This document shows, piece after piece, positions 11,877 to 44,859 of a stretch of DNA of 64,000 nucleotides. Location of the stretch: assembly GCA_965206125.1 (NCBI GenBank), contig CBDBIN010000045.1:772531-836530 (forward strand), in the 5' to 3' direction. The notes beneath the pieces are model-generated. The model was not told the DNA's origin, did not search any database, and saw only the letters and a program-made list of their open reading frames with translations. Numbering within the stretch: position 1 is the first letter of the stretch; each line of letters opens with the position of its first letter. Source of the stretch: Terriglobia bacterium. Its GTDB lineage: Bacteria; Acidobacteriota; Terriglobia; 20CM-2-55-15. The position numbers were made by a program, and so were the translations under genes.

Positions 11877-11897
11877 GATTAGTTTCCCCTTCGCCGT

Positions 11898-13268: not shown

Positions 13269-13301
13269 GGATCTCTGCTCCTTGTGATCTACGAGCTCTA
13301 A

Positions 13302-26279: not shown

Positions 26280-27837
26280 TTACTCCGGGTCTTCCGGCCG
26301 CTGCCGGTGGAAGTCCGTGACGGCCTGGTAGGCCGCAACGACGGCAAAGAGCCGTTCTTCACCGAACGGTGGCGCGGCCAGCACGGCGCCCCGGGGGCGA
26401 CGACGCCCGGAGTCCTCGTGGATGTCGAAGCCGATCGGCATGCACATCAACGGCAGGCCGGTGCCGTCGAAAGCGCCGGTCGAACTCGTCAGCACGACAT
26501 CACACTGGTTGAACAGCTGCGTAAGCATGCGCTCGAGGAGAAGATGTCTGGCCTGTTGCACTTTCACGTAGGTATCGGCGCTTTGGAACATGCCGTTGAG
26601 AAACCGCGGAAGCCGATCCGCGAAGTTCCGCACGTCCTTCCGGAGATGCTCGATGAAGAAAGCCGTGGGATCGCCGTGCGAGGTGCCGAACGGGTTCGAC
26701 GTGAGCTCATCCCATTGGTCCGGCAGGGTCATGTCCGGGACGATCGTGACGGACGGATTCCGTTCCAACTCGGTGACCAACTCACCTCGGAGTTCATTCG
26801 TCCGCTCGTTGTTGGACGCGAGATAATCGGGCCAGATGCCGATCCGCGTGGGCCAGCGGACGCGCGGTCGTTCTCCCCCGAACGGCGTCGCGGCCAGGGC
26901 GTAATTCGGCGGCGGGGGCAGCCCCAGCGTCCTCGGATCGTTGGGATCAGCCACGGCCAGCGTCTGTAACACGATTGCCGCGTCCAGGGCGTTACGCGCC
27001 ATCGGACCGACATGGTCCCGGGTCAGGCTGAGCGGGATGATCCCGTGAAGGGAGATACGTCCGAAAGTCGGCTTGATGCACGTCAGTCCCTGGGCGTTGC
27101 CGGGTCCAAGAACCGAACCTCCGGTCTGCGTGCCGAAGCCCGCAACGGCCAGCCGGCCCGCAACGGCTGTCCCTGTCCCTGAAGACGACCCGGCGGGACT
27201 GACAGACGGGTCGTTGGGCACCCAGGCGTTTCTTGTCGTCGGAATCGTCGTGCCGTACTGCCGGGCACGGCCGCCCGCCAGGTTTCCCATCTGCGCTTTC
27301 CCCACTACCAGGGCGCCTGCGGCTCGCATCAGCGAAACGGCTGTCGCGTCGTAGTCGGGTTGGAAACCCTCGAAAACGAGCGAGCCGCCCTCGGTCAGCA
27401 GATCCGAAGTGTAGAAATTGTCCTTCGGTGCGAAACAGATCCCGCGCAGAGGAGCGTTCGGGCCGTCGGGCGGAATGCGCTCAGCCAGGGAGAGAAGGTC
27501 TTCCCGTGACGGTCGGGCGGCGTACGCCTGGTAGATGGCGTCGAAGGCCTCTATCCGATCCACGTAGGCATCGACGAGATCCGAAGGCGCGAGCGTCCCA
27601 TTGCCGGATGAGCGTCATCGTTTCCGACAACGTCAGCTCGGTCAGATCGTCAAGCGCTTGAGGACTGACCGAGCGCGCGAAGGCCTCTTCGGACACGTTT
27701 GGAGCTCGGGTGCGTGCAAGGGCCGGAATCTCTCCAAGGAGCGTACCCGTCGCCGACGCCGACGACACCCAGGCCATCCTGTTGAGGAACCATCGGCGGG
27801 AGACGTTCCGGTCCTGAGGTGGAGGCGTACGACCCAT
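26280..27837 (-). CDS. amidase-signature family amidase with a Tat signal peptide; an apparent +1 frameshift near 27585-27605 separates the signal/N-terminus from the catalytic body
   Basis: The body ORF 26280-27563 has the amidase-signature GGSSSGTGTAVAGRLAVAGFGTQTGGS. The N-terminus with the Tat motif SRRWFLNRMAWVSSASATG is in another frame (ORF 27481-27837). The frames join as ...MTLIRQ then GNGTLAPSDLVDAYVDRIEAF. Confidence 0.6.
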
Positions 27838-27840
27838 CGG

Positions 27841-27981
27841 CTATTCTTCTTCGGTCCAGGCCGTGAACGGAGCCGGGAAAGGTTGGGGAAGCGTGAACTG
27901 GGGATCGATCTGGAAGTCCGCCGCGACCACGTCCTGTCTGAGAATGGACCGGGCGTTACGGAGCAGGCGCTCCTGATCCAT
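27841..27981 (-). CDS. possible 46-aa upstream ORF translationally coupled to the amidase gene
   Basis: MDQERLLRNARSILRQDVVAADFQIDPQFTLPQPFPAPFTAWTEEE. A GAAGAGG-like RBS is present. Its TAG stop lies 3 nt before the amidase ATG. Confidence 0.2.
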   Translation of the reverse strand: MDQERLLRNARSILRQDVVAADFQIDPQFTLPQPFPAPFTAWTEEE

Positions 27982-28108
27982 GGGCGCCTCTTCGTCCGAG
28001 ACGGGCAGTACGGATATGTCGACACCGAGCAGTGCGTACCTGGTACGGATGAAGGTGTCTAGTTCTTCGTCGGTGGGAGGCTCCGGAGGGATCGGGTTCT
28101 GCACCGAT

Positions 28109-29770
28109 TCACTGATCCACGGTCTTGACGACACAGGTGGAAGCCCGGCAGTAGTCCGAGTTTTCCGAACCCAACATCTCGAGAAATTCCACGGTCTCGG
28201 GATATTGCATGTTGTGCGCCTTAGGTCCGTTAGCCATGTCCGCCACCGTGTCACCGGTTCCGTCGACTTCCTCGTCAGCCCGACCTGCTCCACCGAAGAT
28301 CTTATTGGCGCGAGCATTGATATCCGCACCGGCTGCGATCAGATAGAGGATCAGGTCATGCTCGACTGTCAGTGCGGCGCCGTGCAGTGGCGTATACCCG
28401 TCTTTGTCCGGCAGGTTCACGTCAGCCCCGGTTGCCTCCACGAGGTAGCGGACGGCGTCGAGCCGGGCGTCGGGAGCAAAATGGGTGACCTGCGGTTCGA
28501 AGCCAAAACCCGCGGCAGCCAGAAGCGGTGACGCGCCACCCTTGGTCGGAATGGCCGGGTTTGCGCCGGCAGCGAGAAGGAGTTTCATCGCGGGCACATC
28601 ATTCGCTTTTGCCGCAAGCCAGAAAGCCGTCCCACCGATCGGCCGAATCCAGTCCCCATGGTTCGTCCGGTACAGCGGTTTCTTTTCGAGCCGTCGGTCG
28701 GGCTCCGCTCCGTTCTCGAGGAGCGCGGCAACCAGATCCAGATAGTCGGTCTGCTCTTCTTCGATACTCGGCGCCGGATACCAGGTACGCTCCGCCCACC
28801 GCGCGTCGATCGTCGCGTACAGCGGCGCCACTCCGTCCTTATTGGCCAGGTTGGGATCGGCGCCTTGTTGGAGGATGAAAGCGGCGACGTCGAGGCTGGA
28901 GTTGATGATTGCGGCATTCAATGGGCTGGCGCCATCCGAAGCTGCCACCAGGTCCACGTCGGCACCTGCGTCGACCAACTCTCTGGTGACGTCCAGGTGG
29001 CCTTCCCGAGCCGCAAAGTGCAGCGCGCTCAAGCCCCCAGAGAACCGCTCTTCACGATCCTCACGAACCATCGCGTTGCCGTCTTCGTCACGGTAACGAT
29101 CCCGCCAGGGGATGACCTCCGACAGTTTCGTCAGTGCATTGGGATCGGCGCCCGCCGCCCCAAGCATGCGGACGACGTCAGCCCTGCCCCTTGCTGCGGC
29201 GAACATCATAGCCGTCTGCTCGGTCGTCGTGTCGGCGGCGTTCACGTCAGCGCCTTGGGCGAGCAGTAACTCTACGGCATCGGTCTTACCCGAAGCCGCG
29301 GAATACATCAGCGGCGTCGTGCCGTTCGCATCCGGTGCATTCGCATCGCTACCTGCCTCTAACAGCAACTCGAGCATATCGGCGTTGCCGTTCTTCGAAG
29401 CCATGAGCATTGGGGTCAGGTCACCCAGGCGGGTCTCTACACCAACGTTCGCGCCGGCTTCGATCAGCAAACGGGCCATCTCGAGGTCTTCGCGGTATGC
29501 AGCCCAGTGCAGGGCCGTGGTGCCGTCTCCCTGCGGAGCGTTCACATCCGCACTCCGACCGAGTAGCGATCGCACGGACTCAATGTCGCCCCGCATGGCC
29601 GCATCGGCGATAGGAGCATCCACCGCGCCGCCGTATGCGATGGCCGGTCCGGCCGCGACGGTCAGCAGTACCACCAATAACGCAAGGATCGTGCCTTTCC
29701 CGAACATGTGTCGTTCCTTCAAGAGCTGTTGGCTTTTAGCCTTTGGCTTCAAATGAGATCCAATAGCCAA
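28109..29770 (-). CDS. secreted ankyrin-repeat protein (module copy 2)
   Basis: 553 aa with a signal peptide and ankyrin repeats. The C-terminal motif is GDTVADMANGPKAHNMQYPETVEFLEMLGSENSDYCRASTCVVKT. Confidence 0.85.
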   Translation of the reverse strand: MAIGSHLKPKAKSQQLLKERHMFGKGTILALLVVLLTVAAGPAIAYGGAVDAPIADAAMRGDIESVRSLLGRSADVNAPQGDGTTALHWAAYREDLEMARLLIEAGANVGVETRLGDLTPMLMASKNGNADMLELLLEAGSDANAPDANGTTPLMYSAASGKTDAVELLLAQGADVNAADTTTEQTAMMFAAARGRADVVRMLGAAGADPNALTKLSEVIPWRDRYRDEDGNAMVREDREERFSGGLSALHFAAREGHLDVTRELVDAGADVDLVAASDGASPLNAAIINSSLDVAAFILQQGADPNLANKDGVAPLYATIDARWAERTWYPAPSIEEEQTDYLDLVAALLENGAEPDRRLEKKPLYRTNHGDWIRPIGGTAFWLAAKANDVPAMKLLLAAGANPAIPTKGGASPLLAAAGFGFEPQVTHFAPDARLDAVRYLVEATGADVNLPDKDGYTPLHGAALTVEHDLILYLIAAGADINARANKIFGGAGRADEEVDGTGDTVADMANGPKAHNMQYPETVEFLEMLGSENSDYCRASTCVVKTVDQ

Positions 29771-29793
29771 TAGCTATTGGCTAATGACCTGTG

Positions 29794-31164
29794 TCAGATC
29801 GAATACGTCGCCGTACTGTCGCCGACGCTTTCGACATCGACACCCAGGCTGTGCATCGTGGTCAGCAGCGCATTCGCCTGCGGCGCGTCATCAGCGGCCC
29901 GGACGTGGGTATTGCCCTGCACCCTTCCGGAAGCGTGACCCATCAGGACCACGGGAACACGCTTATGACCATGAATGTTGCCGTCTCCCATCGGGCTGCC
30001 GTAGAAGACCAGCGAGTGGTCGAGCAGGTTCCCGTCACCGTCGGGAGTGTTTTTGAGCTTGTCGATCAGATGCTTGAGCATCGTGACGTGATGGCGATTG
30101 ATCTTCGCGAAGTCCTCAATCATCTCGGGCTTCTGCTGGTGGTGCGAGGCCGAGTGGAACGGGGTATCGCTACCGCTCTCGGGGAATGTCCGCGGGCTGA
30201 CATCACGGGCCATCTTGAGGGTGGACACGCGAGTAACGTCCGCCGAGAAGGCCAGCACCTGCAGGTCGAACATGAGCTTGATGTGCTCTTCCCAGGAATC
30301 CGGCACGCCGACCGGCGCATCCGGCAATTCCCGTTCCGCCCCGGAGGCGTTGTATTCCTCGATCCTCTGGATTCGGCGTTCGATCTCCCGGACATTTTCA
30401 AGATAGTCATCGAGTCGATTCTGATCCGCCTGTCCGATATCGGTCCGAAGCCGAGCTACGGAGTTCGTGATGCGATCGAGGATGCTCCGGTTGACCTGCT
30501 GCCGGGCTACACGTTCTTCAGGGGTGCCGCCGGTTCCGAACAGCTCTTCGAACGCCAGGCGTGGGTCCTGAATCATCGGCAGCGGGGTCGTCGGCGACGC
30601 CCAGCTAAGCGTGTCCATGTAAACGCAGCTGTAGTGGTAGCCGCAGGCGCCGGAGGTGTCCTGGTTCTCAATGCTGAGGTTGATCGATGGCAGCGGTGTG
30701 TCCTGACCAAACTTCTGGGCGTACATCTGATCGATTGACGTTCCGTTGTAGACGTCTGACCCCTCGGTCTGCTTCGGGTGCGCTCCGGTCAGGAACACGG
30801 CGCTCGAACGAAAATGGTCGGCTCCGACCTCTTCCGCCGTCATAGGATCCGCCTGACCGCAATCCGTGTTGCTGATGATCGTCATGTAGTCGCGGTACGA
30901 CTCCAGTGGTTCGAGGATCTGGGTGACGTCGAAATCGTGGCCCTCGGCCGCGGGTGCCCAGAGGTTTTTCTCGGTCCCGTACATCGTGCTGCCCGAATTG
31001 CCGTGAACGATCTCAATGGCCGCGAAACGGCTCCTTGGAGCCGCGGCCGTCTGTGCCAGCGCGGTCCGTGCGGGCACCATGGATTCGAGCAAGGGCAAGG
31101 CAACAACTACCCCCGCGCCCTTTAGCATCGTTCGTCTGGAAATGTTCTTCCTGGTGATGAACAT
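29794..31164 (-). CDS. DUF1552 family Tat-exported protein (module copy 2)
   Basis: 456 aa. Tat signal SRRTMLKGAGVVVALPLLESM. TPFHSASHHQQ motif. Confidence 0.85.
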   Translation of the reverse strand: MFITRKNISRRTMLKGAGVVVALPLLESMVPARTALAQTAAAPRSRFAAIEIVHGNSGSTMYGTEKNLWAPAAEGHDFDVTQILEPLESYRDYMTIISNTDCGQADPMTAEEVGADHFRSSAVFLTGAHPKQTEGSDVYNGTSIDQMYAQKFGQDTPLPSINLSIENQDTSGACGYHYSCVYMDTLSWASPTTPLPMIQDPRLAFEELFGTGGTPEERVARQQVNRSILDRITNSVARLRTDIGQADQNRLDDYLENVREIERRIQRIEEYNASGAERELPDAPVGVPDSWEEHIKLMFDLQVLAFSADVTRVSTLKMARDVSPRTFPESGSDTPFHSASHHQQKPEMIEDFAKINRHHVTMLKHLIDKLKNTPDGDGNLLDHSLVFYGSPMGDGNIHGHKRVPVVLMGHASGRVQGNTHVRAADDAPQANALLTTMHSLGVDVESVGDSTATYSI

Positions 31165-31221
31165 GATCCGGCTCTCCTTGTGATTATCCAGCGATCTTCA
31201 GAAACTCGCCTGAATTCTACC

Positions 31222-33606
31222 TTATCTGCCCTCGGCTGCCTCAATAGAACTTGGGCTCTCCAGCCTCATCTGAAACGGCGTGCTCTCGATGATGCTCATA
31301 ATAAAGGCCGAGAAAGCGTTTCCCTCCTCGGACGCAGACCCCGCGATGGACCGGACGGTCGGCATGTCCCGGTAGTCCAACACCCTACCGAGGGCGTAGG
31401 AAAGGAGCTTTTCGGTAAAGCTTCCGAGAAAAGCATCGGAACGGCCTACGATAGCCTCGCGGAGGCTACTCGGACCGTCCAGTTCGGTCCCGTCATACAT
31501 CCGGGAACCCGCGTCGATCCGGAAACCGCCGTCCGTCGCGCGCCAGTACCCGATGGCATCGAAGTTCTCCAGCGTCAATCCAATGGGGTCCATGATCTGG
31601 TGGCACGCGTTGCATGCCGGGTTTTCGCGGTGCGCGACCATTCGGTCGCGAACGGTCAGCACGGCTTCGTTATTGACGCTTTCCTCGAACGGCGGCACGA
31701 CCGGGGGAGGAAGCGGCGGAGGTGAGCCGAGCAGAACTTCCAGCACGTACTTTCCGCGCGCGACCGGCGAAGTCCGGTTCGACAGCGAAGTCACTGCCAG
31801 TACGGCTCCTTTGCCCAGCAGTCCGAACCGGTTCGGATCCTCCAGGGATACTCTGCGGAAGCGGCTCCCCACGATGTCGGGAATCCCGTAGTGAGTGGCG
31901 AGCGGTTCGTTGACGAACGTATAGTCCGCGGTGAGCAGATCGAGTACGCTTCGATCCTCTCGCACGATCGTATCAAACAGGAGCTCGACCTCCCGCTTCA
32001 TCGATCGCGCCAGGTTCCTTGTGAACTCGGGAAACAGCGTTCCCTCCGGATGAACCTCTTCAATGCTGGTCAGCCTCAGCCACTGCATCGCGAAGTTTGT
32101 CGCCAGCGTCTCGGAACGGGGATCGGCCAACATGCGCCTCACCTGCTCGGCGAGGACTCCCTCCTCGTGAAGCCCGCTTTGACTCGCGATCTCGATCAGT
32201 TCGGCGTCAGGCGCAGAGTTCCACAGGAAGTACGACAACCGAGAAGCCAGTTCCAGATCGCTGACGCGGAAGCTATCACCGGATCCGACACCGGCGGGAA
32301 CGCGCTCGAAACGGAAGACGAACTCGGGCATGGCTATGAGCGTCTGCACGGCCGTTCGGATTCCGGTTTCGAAGTCACCTCTCCCGACGCCCATCCCGTA
32401 CATGAACATCAATTCTTCGAGATCCGCCGGCGTCGCAGGTCGTCGGAAGGCCTGGGTTGCAAGACTCGAAAGGATCTCCCGCGCGCAGGGTCCCTCCTCA
32501 CTCGCATCGGTCGGGTAACACGTGAAGATTTTCCGGCGGCTGTCGGTATCGGACACGCCCGTGACCTTCAGCGGCCCCGTAATGGTGAACGTCCTCAGGT
32601 GGGGCGGCAGTGAGGTTCCGAAGTTCCTGCCGTAATCGAGATCCACCAGCGTCTGCTCCACGACCCGATAGGGGTCCTCGCCGGCACCCTCGTACTTGGA
32701 CACGAACGCCGCCGAAACCCGGCGCGCTCCAGCCTGGATTTCGATCGCATCCGTCACCATCACGCCATCGCTGAGTTCGTTCATCAGCGGATCGATCGTG
32801 AACACGACAACTCGCTCCCCGTCGATGGAAATCTCGAGTTCCTGGTACTGCAACGATTCCGGCAGCTCTCGGCCGATGAGGTCTCCGGTATCGACGTACC
32901 AGAGCTTCATCTGGAAAGCGTATTCGCCGTCGGCCGGGAAGTTATGAATGACGGACATCCCTCCTCGTGTCCCGAACGGGGTGCCCTCGACGTGCCGCAT
33001 CTGGTTGACGACTTTAGGGACATCGTATTGCTTGACGGCGACAACGGCCTCCGGGTCTCCGACCGCAAGGCGCGCGATTGTGTCGGCAGCGCGGACGTAC
33101 GCCTGCATGAGTGCCGGCGTCACGGTCAGCGCCTCAGACATGTTGTCGAAACCACCCGTGCGGCCATCGGGCGGGAGCAGCGCCGCAACATCCACGTCGA
33201 GACTGAGCAGATCTCGGATCGAGTTGCGGTACTCCTTGCGGTTCACCCGGTGAAGGTCAGGCGCGCTGACGTTGGGGTTGTCGGCGGCAACCCGATCGAT
33301 CCGGGCTTCCAGTCCAGCGGCAAGGTTTCTGAGCGAGTCCTCGTCGGGTCTGGGCGCGCCTGCCGGGGGCATCATGCCGGCCCGCAGCTTTCGGATAACT
33401 TCCTCCGCCTGTCGGGCGTTAGCGGCGGGGTTCGCCACATCAATTTCGCTCCACGAGAAGCCGCCCTCTCTCAGGGCATCATTGTGGCAGTAGGCACAGT
33501 ACTCGCCAACCAGGGCCTCGTGGGATTCGACGGATGACCCCTGACCGTAGGCCACGGGGGCCAGCGCGAAGATAACCGGGCCTATAGCGGCCAACATCGC
33601 TCTCAT
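31222..33606 (-). CDS. DUF1592-type putative di-haem cytochrome c (module copy 2)
   Basis: 794 aa. EYCAYCHNDAL and ENPACNACHQIMDPIGL motifs. SPPPLPPPVVPPFEE linker. About 75% identical to copy 3 over the N-terminal 200 aa by eye. Confidence 0.85.
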   Translation of the reverse strand: MRAMLAAIGPVIFALAPVAYGQGSSVESHEALVGEYCAYCHNDALREGGFSWSEIDVANPAANARQAEEVIRKLRAGMMPPAGAPRPDEDSLRNLAAGLEARIDRVAADNPNVSAPDLHRVNRKEYRNSIRDLLSLDVDVAALLPPDGRTGGFDNMSEALTVTPALMQAYVRAADTIARLAVGDPEAVVAVKQYDVPKVVNQMRHVEGTPFGTRGGMSVIHNFPADGEYAFQMKLWYVDTGDLIGRELPESLQYQELEISIDGERVVVFTIDPLMNELSDGVMVTDAIEIQAGARRVSAAFVSKYEGAGEDPYRVVEQTLVDLDYGRNFGTSLPPHLRTFTITGPLKVTGVSDTDSRRKIFTCYPTDASEEGPCAREILSSLATQAFRRPATPADLEELMFMYGMGVGRGDFETGIRTAVQTLIAMPEFVFRFERVPAGVGSGDSFRVSDLELASRLSYFLWNSAPDAELIEIASQSGLHEEGVLAEQVRRMLADPRSETLATNFAMQWLRLTSIEEVHPEGTLFPEFTRNLARSMKREVELLFDTIVREDRSVLDLLTADYTFVNEPLATHYGIPDIVGSRFRRVSLEDPNRFGLLGKGAVLAVTSLSNRTSPVARGKYVLEVLLGSPPPLPPPVVPPFEESVNNEAVLTVRDRMVAHRENPACNACHQIMDPIGLTLENFDAIGYWRATDGGFRIDAGSRMYDGTELDGPSSLREAIVGRSDAFLGSFTEKLLSYALGRVLDYRDMPTVRSIAGSASEEGNAFSAFIMSIIESTPFQMRLESPSSIEAAEGR

Positions 33607-33642
33607 TGCTACAACTCCTGCTTACTCAGCAGCCCGTGGCCG

Positions 33643-35265
33643 CTAATTCTGCGATCCATCCCGTGTCTTGATCACGCACGTCGACGCCCTGCAGTTGTTC
33701 GAGTTCTCCGAACCCAGACTTTCGAGCAATTCGACAGTGGCGGGGTACTGCAGGTTGTGAGCACGCGGACCATTCGCCATGTCGGCGACCGTATCGCCCG
33801 TTTCCCCCTCGACGTTGAGATCACGTCTGCCGAGACCGCCAAAGACCATGTAGGCGCGGGCCCCAGGGTCCCCACCGGCCGCCATCAAGTACCTGATCAA
33901 CTCGTGGTTCTCAGTCAGTGCCGCTCCATGCAGCGGCGTGTACCCGTTGTTGTCCCGCGAGGTCACATCCAGGCCGATTTCTTCGATCAGGTACCGGACA
34001 GCGGCCACTCTCTGACCCGGCGCAAAGTTCGTCACCTGGGGTTCAAGACCGAAACCGGCCGCCACCATCAGTGAGGTCGCGCCTTGATTCGATCTGGCGG
34101 TGGGATCCGCGCCGGCGGCGATGAGCAACTTCATGGCCGGAACGTCGTTGGCTTTTGCAGCCAGCCAGAACGGGGTTGCACCGGCCGGCCTGGCCCAGTC
34201 GCCGTGCTCGGTCCGGTACCACGGTTTGTTCTCCAGGATCTGATTGACCTCGGCACCACGTTCGATGAGCGCCCTGGCAAGGTCCAGATAGTTGGTCGCT
34301 TCCTGATCGATACTCGGTGCCGGGTACCAGGTGCGCTCTGCCCACCTGGCGTCGATCGTCGCGTATAACGGGGCCTGTCCGTCGATGTTGGGCAGGTTGG
34401 GATCGGCTCCCTCTTCGACCAGGTACCTGGCGATGTCGCTATGGCCGTTGATGATGGCCGAAGTCAGAACGCTGGTTTCATCGGCAACCGAAACGCGGTC
34501 GATGTCCGCTCCGGAGTCCAACAGTGCGCGGATGGCGTTCATATGGCCCTGACGCGCCGCAAAGTGCAGCGCGGTCATCCCACCCATTAACTCTGCATCG
34601 TAATCTTCGCGGATCTGGATGCTGCCGTCCTCATCACGGTATTTCTGATCGAACGTGATGACCTCGCTCACCTTCGTAACCACGTCCAGGTCCGCGTCCG
34701 CAGCGGCAAGCACCCGGATTGCGCCAGCCCGGTCGAGGGCCGAGGCGAACATCGTCGCCGTCTGCCCGTTCGTGGTGTCTCTGGCGTTCACGTCAGCGCC
34801 ACCGTCGAGCAGCGTCTGAACCGCGGCTGCCTCGCCGGCAGCCGCAGCGTACATCAACAAGGTTGTCCCGTTCGTGTCGGTGGAGTTCGCATCAGCCCCG
34901 GCTTTGATCAGCAGCTCGACCATGGCGGCGTTCCCATTCTTGGCAGCCATCACGATGGGGATGAGCTCGTTCACCCGAGTCCTGGCCCCGACGTCCGCTC
35001 CCGCTGCGAGCAGCAGGGTCGCCATCTCCAGGTCGTCCCTGTAGGCCGCCCAGTGCAGCGCTGTTGTGCCGTCACCCTGCGGCGCATTCACATCCGCTTT
35101 CTGCTCCAGCAGGCTGCGTACGGCCTCGATGGCGCCCCGCATGGCCGCGTCGGCGAGCGGTGAGTCCGCTTCGGATGCCAGCGCTGTCGAGCCTGCGGCT
35201 GCAAGAAGCATCGCCATGCACGACCCGAGAATTGCGTGTTTACCGAACATGTATCGCCCCTTCAA
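33643..35265 (-). CDS. secreted ankyrin-repeat protein (module copy 3)
   Basis: 540 aa. The C-terminal motif is GDTVADMANGPRAHNLQYPATVELLESLGSENSNNCRASTCVIKT. The stop lies 36 nt upstream of the start of the copy-2 cytochrome gene. Confidence 0.85.
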   Translation of the reverse strand: MKGRYMFGKHAILGSCMAMLLAAAGSTALASEADSPLADAAMRGAIEAVRSLLEQKADVNAPQGDGTTALHWAAYRDDLEMATLLLAAGADVGARTRVNELIPIVMAAKNGNAAMVELLIKAGADANSTDTNGTTLLMYAAAAGEAAAVQTLLDGGADVNARDTTNGQTATMFASALDRAGAIRVLAAADADLDVVTKVSEVITFDQKYRDEDGSIQIREDYDAELMGGMTALHFAARQGHMNAIRALLDSGADIDRVSVADETSVLTSAIINGHSDIARYLVEEGADPNLPNIDGQAPLYATIDARWAERTWYPAPSIDQEATNYLDLARALIERGAEVNQILENKPWYRTEHGDWARPAGATPFWLAAKANDVPAMKLLIAAGADPTARSNQGATSLMVAAGFGLEPQVTNFAPGQRVAAVRYLIEEIGLDVTSRDNNGYTPLHGAALTENHELIRYLMAAGGDPGARAYMVFGGLGRRDLNVEGETGDTVADMANGPRAHNLQYPATVELLESLGSENSNNCRASTCVIKTRDGSQN

Positions 35266-35365
35266 GACTCTGTTGGCCTTTGGCTGTTAGCTTCAAGACC
35301 GCTAGCTTCAAATTAGATCCGATAGCCAAAAGCCAATCGCTAATCGCCAAAGGCTAGTCGCTAGA

Positions 35366-36736
35366 TCAGATCGAAAACGTCCCAGTGCTGTCGCCGATGC
35401 TTTCCCTGTGCACCCCGAGGCTGTGCAGGACCGTCAGCAAAGCGTTGGCCTGCGGAGTATCCTCGGCGGCACGCACGTGCCGGTTGCCGGACACGGTCCC
35501 CGACGCATGACCGGCCAGGACGAACGGAATCCGCTTGTGGCCGTGGACATTGCTGTCGCCCATCGGACTGCCGTACAGGATGAGCGAGTGGTCCAGCAGG
35601 TTGCCGTCACCGTCCGGCGTATTCCGCAACTTGTCCAGAAAGTAGGTCAGGACATCGATATGGTGCCGGTTGATGAGGGCGAAGTCTTCGATCTGGGCAG
35701 GGTCCTGCTGGTGGTGTGACGCCGAGTGGAACGGTGCGGGGGTGCCGCTGTCCGGGTACGTCCGCTGACTGGTGTCGCGGCCAAGTTTCAGGGAGGACGC
35801 GCGAGTGACGTCCGCCGAGAAAGCCAGCGCCTGGAGGTCGTACATGATCTTGACGTGCTCCTCCCACGAATCAGGCACGCCGACCGGAGCGTTCGGCAGT
35901 TCTCTCTGCGCGCCCGACGCGTTGTACTCCTCGATCCTCTGAATCCGACGCTCGATCTCACGTACGTTCTCGAGATAATCGTCGAGCCGACTTCGGTCCA
36001 CGGGGTCCAGGTCGTTCCGCACGCGGGCCACCGAGGTTGTGATGCGGTCGAGGATGCTGCGATTGACTTCGCGCCTCGCGGCCCGCTCTGCCGGCGTGCC
36101 GCCCGATCCGAACAGTTGTTCGAAAGCCAGGCGCGGGTCCGGCGTCATCGGCAGCGGCGTCGTCGCGGACGACCAACTCAGAGTCTCCATGTAGACACAG
36201 CTGTAGTGGTAGCCGCAGGCGCCGGTGGTTTCCTGGTTCTCGATGCTGAGCTGAATCGAAGGGACCGGCGTATCCTGACCGAACTCCTGAGCGTAGAGTT
36301 GGTCGACCGACGGCCCGCAGTAAACGTCGGAACCCTCGGTCTGTTTCGGATGACCGCCGGTCAGGAACACCGCGCTCGACCGGAAATGATCGGCGCCGAC
36401 CTCCTCGGGCGTAAAGGGATCGGCCGGCCCGCAGTCGGTATGGGAGATGATCGTCGTGTAGTCGCGGAACGGTTCCATCGGTTCGAGGATCTGGCTGAAC
36501 TCGAAATCTCGGCCTTCCGCAGCCGGAGCCCAGAGGGCTTTTTCGGTCCCGTACATGGTGCTCCCGGCCGAACCATGGACGATCTCGATCCCGGCGAAGC
36601 GGCTTGGCGGAACCGCCGCCGTGTTTCTCAGCGGAGTCTGGGCGGGCACCATGGATTCCAGGAACGGCAGCGCGACCGCAACGCTGGCGCCATGTAGCAT
36701 CGTCCGTCTTGAAATGTGTTTCTTGGTGATAAACAT
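35366..36736 (-). CDS. DUF1552 family Tat-exported protein (module copy 3)
   Basis: 456 aa. Tat signal SRRTMLHGASVAVALPFLESM. APFHSASHHQQ motif. Confidence 0.85.
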   Translation of the reverse strand: MFITKKHISRRTMLHGASVAVALPFLESMVPAQTPLRNTAAVPPSRFAGIEIVHGSAGSTMYGTEKALWAPAAEGRDFEFSQILEPMEPFRDYTTIISHTDCGPADPFTPEEVGADHFRSSAVFLTGGHPKQTEGSDVYCGPSVDQLYAQEFGQDTPVPSIQLSIENQETTGACGYHYSCVYMETLSWSSATTPLPMTPDPRLAFEQLFGSGGTPAERAARREVNRSILDRITTSVARVRNDLDPVDRSRLDDYLENVREIERRIQRIEEYNASGAQRELPNAPVGVPDSWEEHVKIMYDLQALAFSADVTRASSLKLGRDTSQRTYPDSGTPAPFHSASHHQQDPAQIEDFALINRHHIDVLTYFLDKLRNTPDGDGNLLDHSLILYGSPMGDSNVHGHKRIPFVLAGHASGTVSGNRHVRAAEDTPQANALLTVLHSLGVHRESIGDSTGTFSI

Positions 36737-36782
36737 GGATCCGGCTCTCCTTAATTTTCTAATCCCTTCGTTCCTTCCCGTC

Positions 36783-39230
36783 CTACCTGTCTTCCTGGTT
36801 CGCCTCGGACGCCTGCCTGAACTCGCGCATCTGGAACGGCGTACTGTTCACGATACCCATGACGAACGCCGAGAAACGGTTCTCCTCATCGGACGCCGCC
36901 CGCGCGATCGAGCGGACGGTCGGCATGTCCCTGTAATCGAGCACCCTCCCCAGACCGTAGGCCAGCAGGTTCTGGGTGAAGCTTCCGAGGAAGGCATCGG
37001 AACGCTTCACGAGCGCTTCGCGCAGGCTGACGGGACCGTCCAGGGGCGACCCGTCATACATTCGAGCGGACGGGTCGATCACGAAGCCACCGTCGTTCGG
37101 ACGCCAGCGGCCCACCGCATCGAAGTTCTCCAGGGTCAACCCGATCGGGTCCATGATCTGGTGGCAGGCGTTACACACAGGGTTCTCCCGGTGCGAGACC
37201 ATCCGTTCGCGCACCGTGCGCACTCGGTCGTTGTCGCCCGCTTCCTCAAATGGCGGTACGACGGGAGGAGGAAGCGGAGGGGGTGACCCAACCAAAACCT
37301 CAAGAACGTACTTGCCGCGCGCCACCGGCGACGTCCGGTTCGCCTGCGACGTCACGGTGAGAACGGCTCCCTTGCCGAGCAGCCCGAATCGGTTCGGATC
37401 GTCCAGCACGACGCGCCGGAATCGGTTCCCGATGACATTGGGAATCCCGTAGTGCCGTGCCAAAGCGCCATCCACGAACGTGTAGTCCGCGGTAATCAGA
37501 TCGAGTACGCTCCGGTCCTCTCTGGCGATGCTGTCGAACAGGAATTCGACCTCGCGTTTCATCGACCGCCCCAGGTTGCGCGTGTACTCCGGGAACAGCA
37601 CGCCCTCGGGATGCACTTCCTCGACACCGGTCAGACGCAGCCATTGCATCGCAAAGTTCGTCGCGAGCGTTTCCGAACGGGGATCCGCAAGCATACGTCG
37701 GACCTGCTGTTCGAGGACTCCTTCGTCCCGCAACCTTCCCTGACTGGCAATCTCGATCAGTTCATCGTCGGGGCCGGCGCTCCACAGGAAGTAGGACAGC
37801 CGAGTGGCCAGCTCGAGATCGCTGATCGGATAGCTGTCTCCGGGCTGAACTCCATCGGGAACCCGCTCGAACCGGAACACGAAATCGGGCATGGCGATGA
37901 GCGTCTGCACGGCGGTCCGGATTCCGTTCTCGAAGTCGCCGCTCCGGCGACCCAGGTCGTACATCTGCATCAACCCTTCCAGGTCCTCCGGCGTAGCCGG
38001 TCTCCGAAATGCCCGGGTGGCCAGGCTACTGATGATTTCGTAGGCGCAGTCCAGCTCTTCTTCCTCGTAAATCGGATAGCACGAGAAGATCTTGCCGCGG
38101 CTCGCCGTCTCCGAAACGCCAGTCACCTTCAGCGGTCCGGTAACCGTAAACGTCCGCAGGTGTGGCAGCATCGTGTTCGGGCTCTTCAACGCCCAGTCGA
38201 CGTTGACCAACGTCTGCTCCCAGAGCACGAACTGGTCTTCGACGGGGCCTTCAAACTTGGAGATGAAGGCGGCCGAAACCCGGTGCGCCCCGGCTTTGAC
38301 CGGGACCGGGCCCGTGTCCATGATCCCGTCTCCGAGCTCGTCAAACAGCGGATGGATGTCGAACAGTCCTACCCGCTCGCCGTCCACGGAAACCTCAAAC
38401 TGCTGGCCCTGGAGCGATTCCGGAAGATCCCTGCCGACAAGCTCCCCCATCGTGACGTACCAGAGTTGCGCCTGGAAGGAATAGTCGCCGTCTGCGGGGA
38501 AGTTGTGCATGACCGACGTGCCGCCACGGGTACCGAACGGCGTCCCTTCGATGTGTCGCATCTGGTTGACGACTTTCGGGACGTCGTACTGGGTCATGGT
38601 CTGGCCTGCCTCGGGGTCACCGACAGCCTGGCGCGCGATGGTCCCGGCCGCCCTGACGTACGCCTCCATGAGCCCGGGCGTTACGGTCAGCGCCTCGGAC
38701 ATGTTGTCGAAACCGCCGGTCTTGGCGTCCGGCGGCAAGAGGGCGGAAACATCGATGTCGACTGCCAGAAGGTCCCGGATCGAGTTGCGGTACTCCTTCC
38801 GGTTGATCCGGTGGAGGTCCGGCGCATCCGCATGCGGGGCCGCCGCCCGGTCGACACTCGCCGCGAGCGCCGCGGCAAACTGATTGATGGTGGCATCGTC
38901 GGGTCGGGGAGCGCCGGAGGGAGGCATCATGCCTGCCTTCAGCTTGCGTATGACTTCTTCGGCCTGTTCGGCATTCCTCGCGGGATTGGCCAGATCCAGT
39001 TCGCCCCATGAAAATCCGCCCGTCAGCAGCGCGTCGTTGTGGCAGTAAACGCAGTATTCGCCCACCAGCGCCCGTTGAGCTTCGAGAGACGGCAGACTGC
39101 CGCCGCCCTGGCCGTTGACACTCACGGCCAGATCGCCGCCGGCTGACACAAAGATGACGAACGCGAATAGGACGAACAGGGCTTGACGGAACAACGTCGA
39201 TCTCATCAAGAAAGCTCCCACATATCTCAC
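36783..39230 (-). CDS. DUF1592-type putative di-haem cytochrome c (module copy 3)
   Basis: 815 aa. EYCVYCHNDAL and ENPVCNACHQIMDPIGL motifs. SPPPLPPPVVPPFEE linker. Confidence 0.85.
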   Translation of the reverse strand: MRYVGAFLMRSTLFRQALFVLFAFVIFVSAGGDLAVSVNGQGGGSLPSLEAQRALVGEYCVYCHNDALLTGGFSWGELDLANPARNAEQAEEVIRKLKAGMMPPSGAPRPDDATINQFAAALAASVDRAAAPHADAPDLHRINRKEYRNSIRDLLAVDIDVSALLPPDAKTGGFDNMSEALTVTPGLMEAYVRAAGTIARQAVGDPEAGQTMTQYDVPKVVNQMRHIEGTPFGTRGGTSVMHNFPADGDYSFQAQLWYVTMGELVGRDLPESLQGQQFEVSVDGERVGLFDIHPLFDELGDGIMDTGPVPVKAGAHRVSAAFISKFEGPVEDQFVLWEQTLVNVDWALKSPNTMLPHLRTFTVTGPLKVTGVSETASRGKIFSCYPIYEEEELDCAYEIISSLATRAFRRPATPEDLEGLMQMYDLGRRSGDFENGIRTAVQTLIAMPDFVFRFERVPDGVQPGDSYPISDLELATRLSYFLWSAGPDDELIEIASQGRLRDEGVLEQQVRRMLADPRSETLATNFAMQWLRLTGVEEVHPEGVLFPEYTRNLGRSMKREVEFLFDSIAREDRSVLDLITADYTFVDGALARHYGIPNVIGNRFRRVVLDDPNRFGLLGKGAVLTVTSQANRTSPVARGKYVLEVLVGSPPPLPPPVVPPFEEAGDNDRVRTVRERMVSHRENPVCNACHQIMDPIGLTLENFDAVGRWRPNDGGFVIDPSARMYDGSPLDGPVSLREALVKRSDAFLGSFTQNLLAYGLGRVLDYRDMPTVRSIARAASDEENRFSAFVMGIVNSTPFQMREFRQASEANQEDR

Positions 39231-39370
39231 CGGAATCTACGCTCAGTCAGATACACCGGTCCGGGCACACGCATGCACAAATCTCCCGTCATGGCGGTAA
39301 CGCCGCTTCGATTCTAGAACAACTCCGCACGGAGTTGAAGCAATCTTGCTGAATTTTAAAGCTTTTGAAA

Positions 39371-39493
39371 GGGGACAGGCTCCCCTGTCCCCTCTTGGAC
39401 CATACAGCTATTGCAGCTTGCGAAAACCGGCTTAAGAAATCAGTAACTGAAATTAGTGTAAGAGCGAGGTAGGGACAGGGGAGCCTGTCCCCT
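39371..39493. repeat. MITE-like unit: two inverted copies of a 22-bp self-complementary hairpin flanking a ~77-bp AT-rich core
   Basis: GGGGACAGG-ctcc-CCTGTCCCC lies at 39371-39392. GGGACAGG-ggag-CCTGTCCC lies at 39472-39491. The loops ctcc and ggag are reverse complements, so the two hairpins are inverted copies of one another. The element sits between the methyltransferase stop and the module-3 promoter region. Confidence 0.6.
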
Positions 39494-40859
39494 ATTTGCA
39501 GCCGGGATGGACGTCTGCGAGACAGCGTCTCACGGCCCCTCGAATCTGGGTCATGGACAGACCGGCTGCCTGAGGCTCTTGGGCCACAAGAAAAGCCAGA
39601 TCGTCGAGGGTTCGGTGTCCGTCGATCGACGAGACGACCATCTGGACCAGAAACGCTTTCGACCAGAACACGGCCTGCCCTTCAAACCTGGGTATCGGGA
39701 GATGCCGGAAGATCAGCCAGGCCGGCGGACCGTCCCCCGAGCGGCTCTTGATCGAACTCTCACCGAGCCTGCCGGCGGCAAACGCGAGCACCCACTCCAC
39801 CTTCCCGCGTCCGTTCAGTTTCGACACCAGGTAGGGCATCGATTCGGTCTGCCACTTCGCCACGTGAAAGCCGCAGCGCTCTGCAAGGTCAAACACTTCT
39901 TCACGCGCGAACCGCAACGACACCGGCTTGTCCGGTGTGTAGCGCAGCGGACCAAGGTTGAGCCATCGCCCTCCAGGGCGCAGAAGCCCGTGCAGTGTGC
40001 TCAAAAAATCGCGCAGGTCGCCCGGAACCAGATCGATGAACCAGGGTGTTACGACGGTATCGAACGTCCCGGGCTCGAAAGGCGGTTCCAGACCATCCGC
40101 CAGAAGAAAGTGGAATCGGTCTTCGCCTAGGGCACCATCCGGAGCCGCGAGATCCCACTCCTTGGAAACGTATCCGATTTCATCGATTTCCGAATTGGCC
40201 TCTCGAATACGGACTCTGCCACCACGGATCACGGAATGGGCCACGGCAAAGAGAAAGGAATCGATATCCAGGACCACAGTTTCCGCCCCCGGATCGCTGC
40301 GATGCAGGTCGTAAGCGAGCCGGCATCCGCCCGCTCCGAGGACCAGCGTCCGTCCCAGCGGTTGCCCTTCCAGAACCGACCGGACGGCCGCCAGAGCACG
40401 CTCGTTCTCGCCGTCCGGGGCGGGGGGCCAACCCCAGTCGCGGTAAAGATAGTGAATGTATTCGAGCGGCGCGGGCAGATCGTCACCCGACGACTCGCCT
40501 CCTGGGTCCGCGGCGTCTGCCGGAAGAAGAGGTTCCAGTATCGAACGGATGTCGGCTGCCTGACTCTGGAGGGCATCCATCATGGCCCGGCATCGGGCTC
40601 TAGTGATGGGCAACACGTCGGCCCGCTCGGACTGCTCTTGAATGACGCGTACGGTCTCCTTCGTCTGCTGGTCCAGATTTGCCAATTGCCGCCGGCAGGA
40701 GGCCAGGTACGCGTCCGGGTCCCGAAGCAGCACGGGGATATTCCCCAACCGCGGGTAGCGACTGCCGCAGCCGGAACACCCAATGGATGCCGCGCCGAGA
40801 TCGACTTGCGTGGTGCAACGTGGACAGCGGGCCGTCGCGATGAGGCTTCCGATAGTCAT
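39492..40859 (-). CDS. class I SAM-dependent methyltransferase with an N-terminal Trm112-like Zn-ribbon
   Basis: The start is taken at MTIGSLIATARCPRC. Cys-pairs CPRC...CSGC form the zinc ribbon. The Rossmann motif I TLVLGAGGCRLAYDL and motif II VVLDIDSFLF are present. Confidence 0.5.
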   Translation of the reverse strand: MTIGSLIATARCPRCTTQVDLGAASIGCSGCGSRYPRLGNIPVLLRDPDAYLASCRRQLANLDQQTKETVRVIQEQSERADVLPITRARCRAMMDALQSQAADIRSILEPLLPADAADPGGESSGDDLPAPLEYIHYLYRDWGWPPAPDGENERALAAVRSVLEGQPLGRTLVLGAGGCRLAYDLHRSDPGAETVVLDIDSFLFAVAHSVIRGGRVRIREANSEIDEIGYVSKEWDLAAPDGALGEDRFHFLLADGLEPPFEPGTFDTVVTPWFIDLVPGDLRDFLSTLHGLLRPGGRWLNLGPLRYTPDKPVSLRFAREEVFDLAERCGFHVAKWQTESMPYLVSKLNGRGKVEWVLAFAAGRLGESSIKSRSGDGPPAWLIFRHLPIPRFEGQAVFWSKAFLVQMVVSSIDGHRTLDDLAFLVAQEPQAAGLSMTQIRGAVRRCLADVHPGCK

Positions 40860-40953
40860 GACTACATTGCTCTTTGAGCTACGCGCGGTGCGAAAAAACC
40901 TCCGGGCAAACACTGTGCCGCGCTCCGGCCAAGCCCCCGGACAATCCTGGCTA

Positions 40954-40989
40954 CCGAGCTATGTTGACTTAGGTTATATCCGCTCGGTA
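40954..40989 (+). promoter_or_regulatory. candidate sigma70-like promoter for module copy 4 (TTGACT-N18-TATCAT)
   Basis: ttgact taggttatatccgctcgg tatcat lies in the divergent intergenic region. A GGAGAGG RBS sits 7 nt before the ATG at 41057. Confidence 0.3.
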
Positions 40990-41056
40990 TCATTTGCCGA
41001 ACCGTTTCAGTTGTAACAGTTTACGGTAGGCAGTTCCGGTGCTGGAGAGGTAGCAG

Positions 41057-43522
41057 ATGCCAACAGTCAGAAGAGCCACTGGGTTGTCGCTCTGCCTGGT
41101 TCTGCTGGTCTTCGTCCACGAGCACGCCGCCGCAACCGAAACAAGTCCGCCGGGGGGCCCCCGGACCCTCACATCCGAACCGCAGAACGCAACGTCCCCG
41201 AGCGAGTTCATCGGTGAACACTGCCTCGCCTGCCACAACGAAGCACTCCTCACCGGAGGGCTGACACTCCAGGACATCGATACCGACGACGTCGCCGCCA
41301 ACACGGACATCTGGGAGAAAGTGCTCTTCAAGCTCGGGACGGGTCAAATGCCGCCGATGGGGATGCCACGGCCCGATCCTGCAAGTACCCGCGCCATCGT
41401 GTCGTGGCTCGAAACCTCGCTCGACCGCGCGGCCGAGGCGAACCCCGATCCCGGTCGGGTCGGCGTCCACCGTCTGAACCAGACCGAGTATACGAACGCC
41501 ATCCGGGATCTGCTTGCGCTCGAGATCAACGGGAAATCGCTCCTGTTGCCCGACGAGGCGGATTCTGGCTTCGACAACGTCGCGGCCAGCCTCACGATGT
41601 CGCCGGCACACCTGGAACGCTACATGTCGGCGGCCCGCAAGATCAGCCGGCTCGCCGTGGGCGACCCGACCATCGGTGCCGTTCCGGCCTTCGAAGTGCA
41701 CCAGGTATCCGGACTCCTGGTTCAGGACAACCGGGTCAGCGAGGACCTGCCGTTCGGCTCCCGCGGCGGCACGGCGATCCGGCATCATTTTCCGCTGGAT
41801 GGAGAGTACGTCATTCGGGTGCGCCTCAGGCGGCAGATCTACGACTACATCGTCGGCATGGGCTCGGCCCAAAAACTCGACATCCGGGTCGACGGAAAGC
41901 GCGTTGCGAGGTTCATCGTCGGCGGTGCGGCGCCGGGCGTCGCCGGCCCGTTGACGTGGGTCGGAGAGATCGTCGGAGAAACCGCGTGGGAGCTGTACAT
42001 GCACGACGCGGATGACGACCTGGAAATCCGTGTACCCGTCGAGGCAGGAACGCGGACGGTAGCAGTGTCCTTCGTCGACAGTCCTCGGGAACCGGAAGGG
42101 TTCCCCCAACCGGTGATGGAGGAAAGGGATTTCGGCCGAATCTTCGATGAACAATACGACGGCTACGCGGCCGTGGATACGGTCGCCATCGGCGGGCCGT
42201 ACCTCGCGGAAGGGCCGGGGGACACACCGAGCCGTCGGCGAGTGTTCGTCTGCCGCCCGGCGAGCGTCGAGGACGAGGCGCCGTGCGCCCGAACGATCCT
42301 GTCAACGCTTGCCGGCCGCGCGTACCGCAGGCCGGCAACCGACCGGGAAATCGGGACCTTGATGGACTTCTACGAGATTGGACAGCGCCAGGGAGACTTC
42401 GAGGCCGGGATACAGTCGGCAATCGAAAGGCTCCTGGTCAGCTTTAACTTCTTGTTCCGCATCGAGGCCGATCCGGCTGATCTGGCCCCGGGAACGGTCT
42501 ACAGATTGAGCGACGTGGACCTGGCTTCCCGCCTGTCGTTCTTCCTGTGGAGCAGCATCCCGGACGAGGAACTTCTGGACCGGGCAGCCGCCGGCGAACT
42601 CCACGATCCCGAGGTTCTCGAAAATCAGGTACGACGGATGCTGGCCGATCCCCGGTCGAGGAATCTCGTCGACAATTTCTCGGGCCAGTGGCTCAACGTG
42701 CGCAAGGCCAATACGTGGCAGCCAGACCCCGACGGGTTCCCGTTCTTCGAAGAAAACCTGCGGCAGGCCATCCTGGCGGAAACGGAGCTTTTCATCGACA
42801 GCCAACTTCGCGGGGACCGGAGCGTAGTGGAAATGTTGAGCGCCGACTACTCGTTCGTCAACGAGCGACTGGCCAAGCACTACGGACTACCCGGCATATA
42901 CGGAGAGCGTTTCCGTAGGGTGAAGTTCGACGACGGGCGGCGCGGTGGCCTGCTGGGCCAGGGCAGCATCCTGATGGTGACCTCTTATCCGGACCGCACG
43001 ACGCCGGTGATGCGGGGCCTGTGGTTGCTCGACAACATGCTGGGAATGCCGCCTCCGCCGCCGCCTGCCAACGTGCCGGACCTGGAGGGCAGCACGGAGG
43101 ACGGCCGCACCCTGTCGATACGGGAGCAGATGGCACGTCACGCGGAAAATCCCTCCTGCGCGATCTGCCACGTAAGGATGGACCCTCTTGGCTTCGCGCT
43201 CGAGAACTTCGATGCGGTCGGCCGGTATCGCACTGAGGCCGACGGCATTCCGATCGACGCGTCCACAGTTTTCACCGACGGCACGACGATCGACGGCATC
43301 GATGGGGTCCGGAGATTCCTGTTGGCCCATCGTAAGGATTTCGTCAAGAGCCTCACCGGAAGACTTCTGACATTCGCCCTCGGTCGCAGGGTCGAATACT
43401 CCGACCACCCGGCCATCCGCAAGATTCTGCGGGACGCCGCCGACACCAACTACCGGTGGTCGTCCATCATTCTGGGAATCGTAAACAGCACTCCGTTTCA
43501 GATGAGGAGAACAGCGTCATGA
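41057..43522 (+). CDS. DUF1592-type putative di-haem cytochrome c (module copy 4, most divergent)
   Basis: 821 aa. EHCLACHNEAL and ENPSCAICHVRMDPLGFALENFD motifs. MPPPPPPANVPDLEG linker. The stop TGA overlaps the next gene's ATG (ATGA). Confidence 0.85.
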   Translation: MPTVRRATGLSLCLVLLVFVHEHAAATETSPPGGPRTLTSEPQNATSPSEFIGEHCLACHNEALLTGGLTLQDIDTDDVAANTDIWEKVLFKLGTGQMPPMGMPRPDPASTRAIVSWLETSLDRAAEANPDPGRVGVHRLNQTEYTNAIRDLLALEINGKSLLLPDEADSGFDNVAASLTMSPAHLERYMSAARKISRLAVGDPTIGAVPAFEVHQVSGLLVQDNRVSEDLPFGSRGGTAIRHHFPLDGEYVIRVRLRRQIYDYIVGMGSAQKLDIRVDGKRVARFIVGGAAPGVAGPLTWVGEIVGETAWELYMHDADDDLEIRVPVEAGTRTVAVSFVDSPREPEGFPQPVMEERDFGRIFDEQYDGYAAVDTVAIGGPYLAEGPGDTPSRRRVFVCRPASVEDEAPCARTILSTLAGRAYRRPATDREIGTLMDFYEIGQRQGDFEAGIQSAIERLLVSFNFLFRIEADPADLAPGTVYRLSDVDLASRLSFFLWSSIPDEELLDRAAAGELHDPEVLENQVRRMLADPRSRNLVDNFSGQWLNVRKANTWQPDPDGFPFFEENLRQAILAETELFIDSQLRGDRSVVEMLSADYSFVNERLAKHYGLPGIYGERFRRVKFDDGRRGGLLGQGSILMVTSYPDRTTPVMRGLWLLDNMLGMPPPPPPANVPDLEGSTEDGRTLSIREQMARHAENPSCAICHVRMDPLGFALENFDAVGRYRTEADGIPIDASTVFTDGTTIDGIDGVRRFLLAHRKDFVKSLTGRLLTFALGRRVEYSDHPAIRKILRDAADTNYRWSSIILGIVNSTPFQMRRTAS

Positions 43523-44856: not shown

Positions 44857-44859
44857 GTA

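Follow-up and report, generated by a model that had tools for sequence, protein, structure and literature searches.

A probable ancient tandem duplication of a cytochrome, DUF1552, and ankyrin-repeat gene module in Terriglobia, with paralog-specific change concentrated in one predicted β-sandwich

Positions 28109-39230 of the DNA analyzed here, a 64,000-nt stretch of a Terriglobia bacterium genome (GenBank assembly GCA_965206125.1, contig CBDBIN010000045.1, forward-strand positions 772,531 to 836,530) that we call the window, carry on the minus strand two head-to-tail trios, each consisting of a cytochrome gene, a DUF1552 gene, and an ankyrin-repeat gene. We consider it probable that these trios, which lie in the order C then B, are an ancient tandem paralog pair that forms a putative operon, encodes cooperating exported proteins, and has diverged in specificity. 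An earlier note on the same DNA had described six co-directional genes here and read them as a recent tandem duplication; all six open reading frames (ORFs) are indeed on the minus strand at the coordinates it gave, and tandem duplication of the whole module is borne out by our analysis, but its recency is not. Four trios of the same architecture occur in the window, as identified by Pfam matches and the ORF list. We name them modules A, B, C, and D, corresponding to copies 1, 2, 3, and 4 of that note. The modules and the parts of the B/C array are as follows.

10302-15710, minus strand, module A, the next-closest paralogous trio, 52-65% amino acid identity to B and C
28109-33606, minus strand, module B
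33643-39230, minus strand, module C
41057-46440, plus strand, module D, a distant paralogous trio (34-45% amino acid identity) in divergent orientation
36783-39230, minus strand, C cytochrome gene (C-cyt), 815 aa, predicted exported multi-domain protein with a signal peptide (Pfam)
35366-36736, minus strand, C-DUF1552, 456 aa, DUF1552/HXXSHH protein (Pfam, E = 2.7e-79)
35251-35365, minus strand, C DUF1552-ankyrin spacer, heptamer-type repeats GCCAAAG / ATTGGCT, predicted hairpin
33643-35250, minus strand, C ankyrin gene (C-ank), predicted exported ankyrin-repeat protein (Pfam), likely start ATG 35250, longest ORF from TTG 35265
33607-33642, minus strand, C-ank/B-cyt junction, 36 nt, AGGAG Shine-Dalgarno sequence, without a terminator-like hairpin
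31222-33606, minus strand, B cytochrome gene (B-cyt), 794 aa, PSCyt3/PSD cytochrome (Pfam)
29794-31164, minus strand, B-DUF1552, 456 aa, DUF1552/HXXSHH protein (Pfam)
29708-29793, minus strand, B DUF1552-ankyrin spacer, homologous to the C spacer, palindrome CCAATAGCTATTGG and GCCAAAG-type repeats
28109-29707, minus strand, B ankyrin gene (B-ank), predicted exported ankyrin-repeat protein (Pfam), likely start ATG 29707, longest ORF from TTG 29770
38112-38600, minus strand, β-sandwich part of C-cyt, ~aa 211-373, equivalent to the B region by alignment
32551-33039, minus strand, β-sandwich part of B-cyt, aa 190-352, predicted jelly-roll without a Pfam domain

Within the window, B and C are mutually closest paralogs. 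Their cytochrome, DUF1552, and ankyrin proteins are 71.8%, 76.8%, and 63.2% identical, respectively, whereas module A shares 59-61%, 64-65%, and 52-53% with B or C, and module D shares 43%, 44-45%, and 34-38% with the others. A B-C identity no higher than that to A or D, which had been put forward as a check on the tandem reading, is thus not what we find; the protein identity previously called high is nevertheless only moderate. At the nucleotide level the copies are far apart, with codon-aligned identities of 0.72, 0.75, and 0.67 for the three genes in the same order and ~0.5 at third codon positions. By the Nei-Gojobori (NG86) method, synonymous divergence (dS) is saturated at 1.18, 1.29, and 1.56, and nonsynonymous divergence (dN) is 0.20, 0.15, and 0.27. 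The longest exact match between modules B and C is 28 nt and not a single 150-nt window exceeds 83% identity, which leaves no recent gene-conversion tract and little substrate for recombination or assembly collapse. Gene conversion between B and C was rejected for want of a high-identity tract and because the ortholog clades described below are clean. An assembly artefact was rejected as well, since copies only 72% identical cannot be collapsed into one and seven independent assemblies show the array. Taken together, the sequence comparisons make it very likely that the duplication is ancient and not a fresh amplification.

A scan with the B-DUF1552 protein across one genome per GTDB species returned 51 loci, mainly from Acidobacteriota (Terriglobia, Vicinamibacterales, 'Marinacidobacterales', Bryobacteraceae, and Solibacteraceae) and Gemmatimonadota. 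Five GTDB species-representative genomes (L001-L005) carry the identical six-gene array, C followed by B, and each of their genes can be assigned to either B or C. The nearest genome, the Terriglobia metagenome-assembled genome (MAG) CAXWPM01 (L001 and L047), is syntenic with the window over A, B, C, and their flanks. Identity to the window is 93-95% for C orthologs and 86-98% for B orthologs in L001, and 70-88% and 73-84%, respectively, in L002-L005. We built one neighbor-joining tree per gene, using a simple distance correction and 100 bootstraps. Each tree resolves a B clade and a C clade at 100% bootstrap, with the window and the five genomes in both; the one exception is g4, whose B-DUF1552 copy contains an in-frame stop and which is missing from the B clade of the DUF1552 tree. 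In all three trees the two clades are sisters, again at 100%. Because the three topologies are congruent, each module evolves as a unit, and the sister relationship of the clades across species points to one whole-module duplication before these species diverged. At least six Terriglobia species thus very probably received the duplication from a shared ancestor, and the array has since been inherited vertically with its adjacency and order kept.

These results bear directly on whether the array could be a recent amplification, that is, a young copy kept for dosage, prone to recombination, and perhaps mis-assembled. The head-to-tail, co-directional modules only 36 nt apart, their status as closest paralogs, and the alignable spacers between their DUF1552 and ankyrin genes would all suit such an origin. 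Saturated dS values of 1.2-1.6, nucleotide identities of 67-75%, a longest exact run of 28 nt, and B and C orthologs that are already separate in five other species argue strongly against it, as does copy number. The array is also present in L054, a strain 97-98% identical to the window, with exactly two modules, so that two modules are found in 7/7 assemblies (the window, L001-L005, and L054), complete chromosomes among them. We regard recent amplification as extremely improbable. The accompanying suggestion that the region may be unstable fares no better, given the constant copy number in these seven assemblies and the poor recombination substrate offered by ~72% nucleotide identity; only the DUF1552-ankyrin spacer is polymorphic.

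Adjacency could also have come about by insertion, if a second module had arrived through horizontal transfer or transposition and landed beside its homolog. The distribution of the family is patchy, and the clade that is sister to B+C, clade E, combines modules from Terriglobia with others from Vicinamibacterales and 'Marinacidobacterales' MAGs at ~72% identity (L012, L013, L016, and L017), which hints at inter-class transfer of whole modules. Module positions vary too: the amidase gene that flanks B in the window (26280-27563) adjoins module A in g3 and g5, and A has no such neighbor in the window. An IS630-family element, moreover, is active at the locus in the sister strain L054. Tandem duplication is nonetheless the simpler account of B and C clades that are exclusive sisters with 100% support for all three genes, of their shared gene order and orientation, and of the 36-nt junction, and the flanks of modules B and C in the window contain neither mobile-element remnants nor direct repeats. 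We therefore judge insertion unlikely and favor ancient tandem duplication. As to the wider arrangement of the family, only the window/g1 lineage has all four modules within 36 kb (window 10302-46440), and module A and the B/C pair are more than 1 Mb apart in g3 and g5 (L020 and L046). Related genomes contain further tandem pairs of this three-gene module that belong to different paralog clades (L006, L008, L010, L011, L028, L044, and L045, the last two with split ORFs resembling frameshifts), so that tandem arrays are a recurrent habit of this module family.

Whether the duplicates are functionally distinct can be addressed through the selection acting on them. Between the window and L001, dN/dS (ω) is 0.07-0.19 in all six genes, and purifying selection acts on both copies; in this comparison B-ank evolves fastest (86% amino acid identity, ω 0.19). 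We counted a position as a fixed difference when all six B orthologs share one residue there and all six C orthologs share another. By this definition there are 88 fixed differences, 42 in the cytochrome protein and 23 each in the DUF1552 and ankyrin proteins. Of the 42, 31 fall within aa 190-352 of B-cyt (hypergeometric P = 2.3e-14), a segment between PSD3 and PSD5 that is the least conserved stretch among all paralogs. Clade-specific, constrained change clustered in a probable binding domain favors retention of B and C through diverged specificity, chiefly of the β-sandwich, over retention for dosage or progressive decay. Of the two selective causes suggested earlier, substrate range therefore fits the clustering of paralog-specific substitutions, whereas dosage does not suit copies that have diverged and been long retained when near-identical ones would be expected.

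A third alternative holds that the copies are redundant, kept by drift or as back-up, with one of them decaying and without functional divergence. The in-frame stop in B-DUF1552 of g4 and the relatively fast evolution of B-ank could be read in this way. However, none of the six genes is disrupted in the window or in 5/6 other assemblies, ω is low in both copies, and the fixed differences have been kept over six species per clade with strong clustering in one domain, a pattern that indicates constrained divergence and not decay. Redundancy is quite unlikely in light of these data, and diverged specificity remains the preferred explanation. In the same comparison with L001, dS is very uneven across the array: the cytochrome, DUF1552, and ankyrin genes give 0.16, 0.09, and 0.45, respectively, in module B and 0.25, 0.42, and 0.30 in module C, with values of 0.11-0.15 for module A, which suggests mosaic exchange of alleles between strains.

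The six genes of the array are likely transcribed as one operon. The C-ank stop codon (TAG, 33645-33643) and the B-cyt start (ATG 33606) confirm the 36-nt gap between the copies that the earlier note had reported, and because this junction contains an AGGAG ribosome-binding site and lacks a terminator, a single six-gene transcript is the likely arrangement. A promoter and terminator scan of 27500-41200 detected no terminator-like hairpin at the junction; its overall site count was not above that of shuffled sequence, making the scan uninformative on transcription units. No break in composition or codon usage is apparent at 33607-33642 at 2-kb resolution, and an Rfam scan of 27900-39600 returned zero matches at E ≤ 1. 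The spacers between the longest ORFs are 46, 100, 36, 57, and 23 nt, in agreement with the 23-100 nt given before. Paralog alignments favor, however, a conserved ATG ('MFGK', 29707 and 35250) as the more likely start of the ankyrin genes, in which case the DUF1552-ankyrin spacers measure ~86 nt in B and ~115 nt in C. Upstream of C-cyt by 261 nt, on the same strand, lies a gene for a CARME-like S-adenosylmethionine (SAM) methyltransferase (39492-40913); L001 and L054 have this gene at the same place. The cytochrome gene of module D ends, and its DUF1552 gene begins, within a shared ATGA (43519-43522), an arrangement that suggests translational coupling, and the longest DUF1552 ORF (from GTG 43456) probably over-extends the gene.

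The DUF1552-ankyrin spacers themselves have an unusual composition. Those of B and C can be aligned and are made of the 7-nt motifs GCCAAAG, CCAATAG, and ATTGGCT together with short palindromes, and both fold as predicted hairpins (ΔG -39.3 kcal/mol and z -2.7 for C; z -1.8 for B). Within the window the motifs are confined to these two spacers; they are present as well in L001 and L054. In g3 and g5 the orthologous spacers are short and free of heptamer repeats, and those of g2 and g4, in both B and C, contain a different repeat (GTGTAGGTGCGGTCTATGACCG...) resembling repetitive extragenic palindromes or miniature inverted-repeat transposable elements (L002:11390-11560, L002:4880-4960, L004:11385-11480, and L004:4245-4330). 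The C spacer of L054 (regions L054:4617-5765 and 5846-5895) has the heptamer expanded to six copies, and an IS630-family transposase element sits at a CTAG directly after the C-DUF1552 stop codon, with CTAG on both sides. Small repeats may have landed in this spacer more than once; it is a fast-changing, lineage-specific hot spot and the only place in the region where we see instability. The homology that had been claimed for the two spacers thus holds as far as their alignment goes, but simple inheritance from the duplication does not explain it; the orthologous spacers of the more distant genomes lack the heptamers.

The domain content of the proteins offers a framework for what might have diverged. 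The cytochrome protein (~800 aa) comprises an N-terminal c-type segment followed by the 'planctomycete-specific' domains PSD3/DUF1587, PSD5/DUF1595, PSD4/DUF1592, PSCyt3/DUF1588, and PSD2/DUF1585, and in C-cyt, too, the β-sandwich lies between PSD3/DUF1587 and PSD5/DUF1595. These five Pfam domains occur in canonical order in modules A-D, all above gathering thresholds (56-159 bits against cut-offs of 23-34). The CxxCH motif occurs twice in each cytochrome protein of the array, at aa 37 and 665 of B-cyt and at aa 60 and 686 of C-cyt, and the Pfam Cytochrome_CBB3 match in B and C falls under its cut-off (22-24 versus 27 bits). The DUF1552 proteins of modules A-D match PF07586 at 267-291 bits against a cut-off of 30 and contain an HxxSHH motif, which reads HSASHH in A, B, and C (aa 337) and HPISHH in D (aa 341; longest-ORF numbering). 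All four carry a twin-arginine-type leader, SRRTML or SRRTFL; the Pfam TAT_signal model matches only B-DUF1552, and weakly (20.9 bits, under the 22.7 cut-off). The ankyrin proteins (~530 aa) match Ank_2, Ank, and Ank_4 at 160-205 bits in modules A-D, above the Pfam thresholds, and repeats cover almost their whole length. Every one of the three proteins has an N-terminal hydrophobic segment and no later transmembrane-like segment. All three thus look exported: the cytochrome as a Sec-exported, putative di-heme c-type protein, the DUF1552 protein through its twin-arginine leader, and the ankyrin protein through a predicted signal peptide.

We turned to predicted structures for the cytochrome and DUF1552 proteins of module B. 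An AlphaFold2 model of B-cyt (predicted local distance difference test [pLDDT] 82, predicted template-modeling score [pTM] 0.83) renders aa 190-352 as a β-sandwich. Foldseek aligns this part weakly to jelly-roll folds, among them the carbohydrate-binding modules (CBMs) CBM35 and CBM6, the carbohydrate-binding part of BcsB, and TNF/C1q-like domains (E 4e-3 to 3e-2, template-modeling [TM] score to the target ~0.5). The model of B-DUF1552 (pLDDT 78.7, pTM 0.83) retrieves members of the alkaline-phosphatase superfamily (S1 sulfatases, LtaS, and related proteins) as its top 50/50 PDB matches at probabilities of 0.9-1.0, with low scores (E ~1e-4, TM 0.3-0.45) and ~10% sequence identity; the predicted fold of DUF1552 is accordingly a distant relative of the alkaline-phosphatase superfamily. 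A metal site would be compatible with the His, Asp, Glu, Ser, and Thr residues that are invariant in DUF1552. A more specific assignment as an S1 sulfatase was rejected for lack of the signature motif: the sole C/S-x-P/A-x-R matches (SGAER/SGAQR, aa 274 in B and C) fall within a helical stretch and are missing from A and D.

A possible mode of action for the module follows from these features. The three proteins would act together in the periplasm, as a complex, in which the cytochrome protein would use its jelly-roll β-sandwich to bind a ligand or partner and would relay electrons through two hemes, the DUF1552 protein would serve as a metal-dependent catalytic subunit of the alkaline-phosphatase superfamily, and the ankyrin protein would be a scaffold or chaperone. 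As a whole, this three-role model is tentative and somewhat more doubtful than probable. Some PSCyt proteins carry recognizable CBMs (He et al. 2017, PMC5615132), which fits a ligand-binding role. According to the same study, PSCyt3 genes usually adjoin one family of unknown genes, with no knowledge of their function (He et al. 2017, PMC5615132).

Of the known systems, the closest are the PSCyt3/PSD and DUF1552 pairs of Planctomycetes and Verrucomicrobia, which share the five-domain architecture, the N-terminal CxxCH, and the adjoining downstream DUF1552 gene, and many paralogous copies of which occur per genome. The modules described here differ in that their host belongs to Acidobacteriota (Terriglobia) and that a third gene encodes a putatively exported ankyrin protein. 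This ankyrin gene follows DUF1552 in most of the 51 Acidobacteriota/Gemmatimonadota loci with enough downstream sequence, and no description of the association was found in the literature searched. A parallel exists in AnkB of Pseudomonas aeruginosa, a periplasmic ankyrin protein needed for full activity of the KatB catalase; AnkB is likewise exported and encoded beside the heme enzyme that it supports, and it is much shorter than the present ankyrin proteins and paired with a catalase. In its predicted fold, DUF1552 resembles the alkaline-phosphatase superfamily, including S1 formylglycine sulfatases and proteins of the LtaS/phosphoethanolamine-transferase type, but without the signature, at TM ~0.4 and ~10% identity, it is not a member of the S1 sulfatases. 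Dosage-driven tandem amplifications are near-identical, recombination-prone, and variable between strains. The B/C array shares with them its repeated, head-to-tail multi-gene units but not its ~72% nucleotide identity, its maximum exact match of 28 nt, or its fixed copy number across species. Cbp2D of Cellvibrio japonicus is a secreted multi-domain protein that combines a c-type cytochrome with DUF1587 and whose cytochrome domain reduces partner lytic polysaccharide monooxygenases (LPMOs) (PMC8981238). It offers a model for an electron donor tethered to carbohydrate-related domains within an exported protein, although only one domain type is shared, Cbp2D lacks a DUF1552 or ankyrin partner, and no LPMO is encoded at this locus.

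Several considerations weigh against the overall interpretation. The trees were built by neighbor-joining with a simple distance correction only, and in them the metagenomic sequences P0014, P0016, P0017, P0032, and P0043 group with C on a short branch. At least one of these, L052, is a single module; L052 and L053, metagenomic members of the B+C clade, lie on single-module contigs with unrelated flanking genes. The placement of this group on a short branch means that the duplication node is only loosely bracketed, and B may have been lost later in those metagenomic lineages. The in-frame TAG in B-DUF1552 of g4 (L004 ~10448-10450, LYA*HFGQD, where the window has Q) may reflect a pseudogene or a sequencing error. 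Co-transcription of the six genes is inferred from sequence only. On the functional side, the structural matches are weak both for DUF1552 (TM ~0.4, E ~1e-4) and for the β-sandwich (E 4e-3 to 3e-2), and the sulfatase C/S-x-P/A-x-R signature has no conserved match in DUF1552 copies A-D. PDB sequence searches with the DUF1552 and cytochrome proteins gave no meaningful match, NCBIfam has zero models matching either (its ankyrin matches being generic and far under cut-off), and no functional assignment for the two families emerged from PDB, NCBIfam, or the literature searched. Literature searches on the DUF names yielded only statements of unknown function, and a search on acidobacterial paralogs returned nothing relevant.

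Current understanding is not overturned by these findings: B and C are an ordinary ancient paralog pair of a widespread, uncharacterized module. They do provide a clean, datable case of whole-operon duplication followed by long-term retention, and they illustrate that paralogous operons lying side by side in the same direction are not necessarily young or unstable in a large acidobacterial genome. Two testable structural hypotheses arise from this work, namely that DUF1552 is an alkaline-phosphatase-superfamily enzyme and that the ankyrin protein is a conserved third partner. More speculatively, and in our view rather unlikely as a complete picture, the trio could represent a widespread periplasmic three-component system of Acidobacteriota and Gemmatimonadota, consisting of a heme relay with an exchangeable jelly-roll recognition domain, an alkaline-phosphatase-fold metalloenzyme that would supply the relay or be supplied by it, and a dedicated ankyrin scaffold joining the two, in which B and C would constitute a natural specificity swap and the heptamer spacer would tune ankyrin expression. 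If so, ~30 residues on one β-sandwich would set the substrate or partner of each module. The candidate specificity determinant of the PSCyt3/PSD and DUF1552 family is, in any case, narrowed to that single β-sandwich of ~160 residues.

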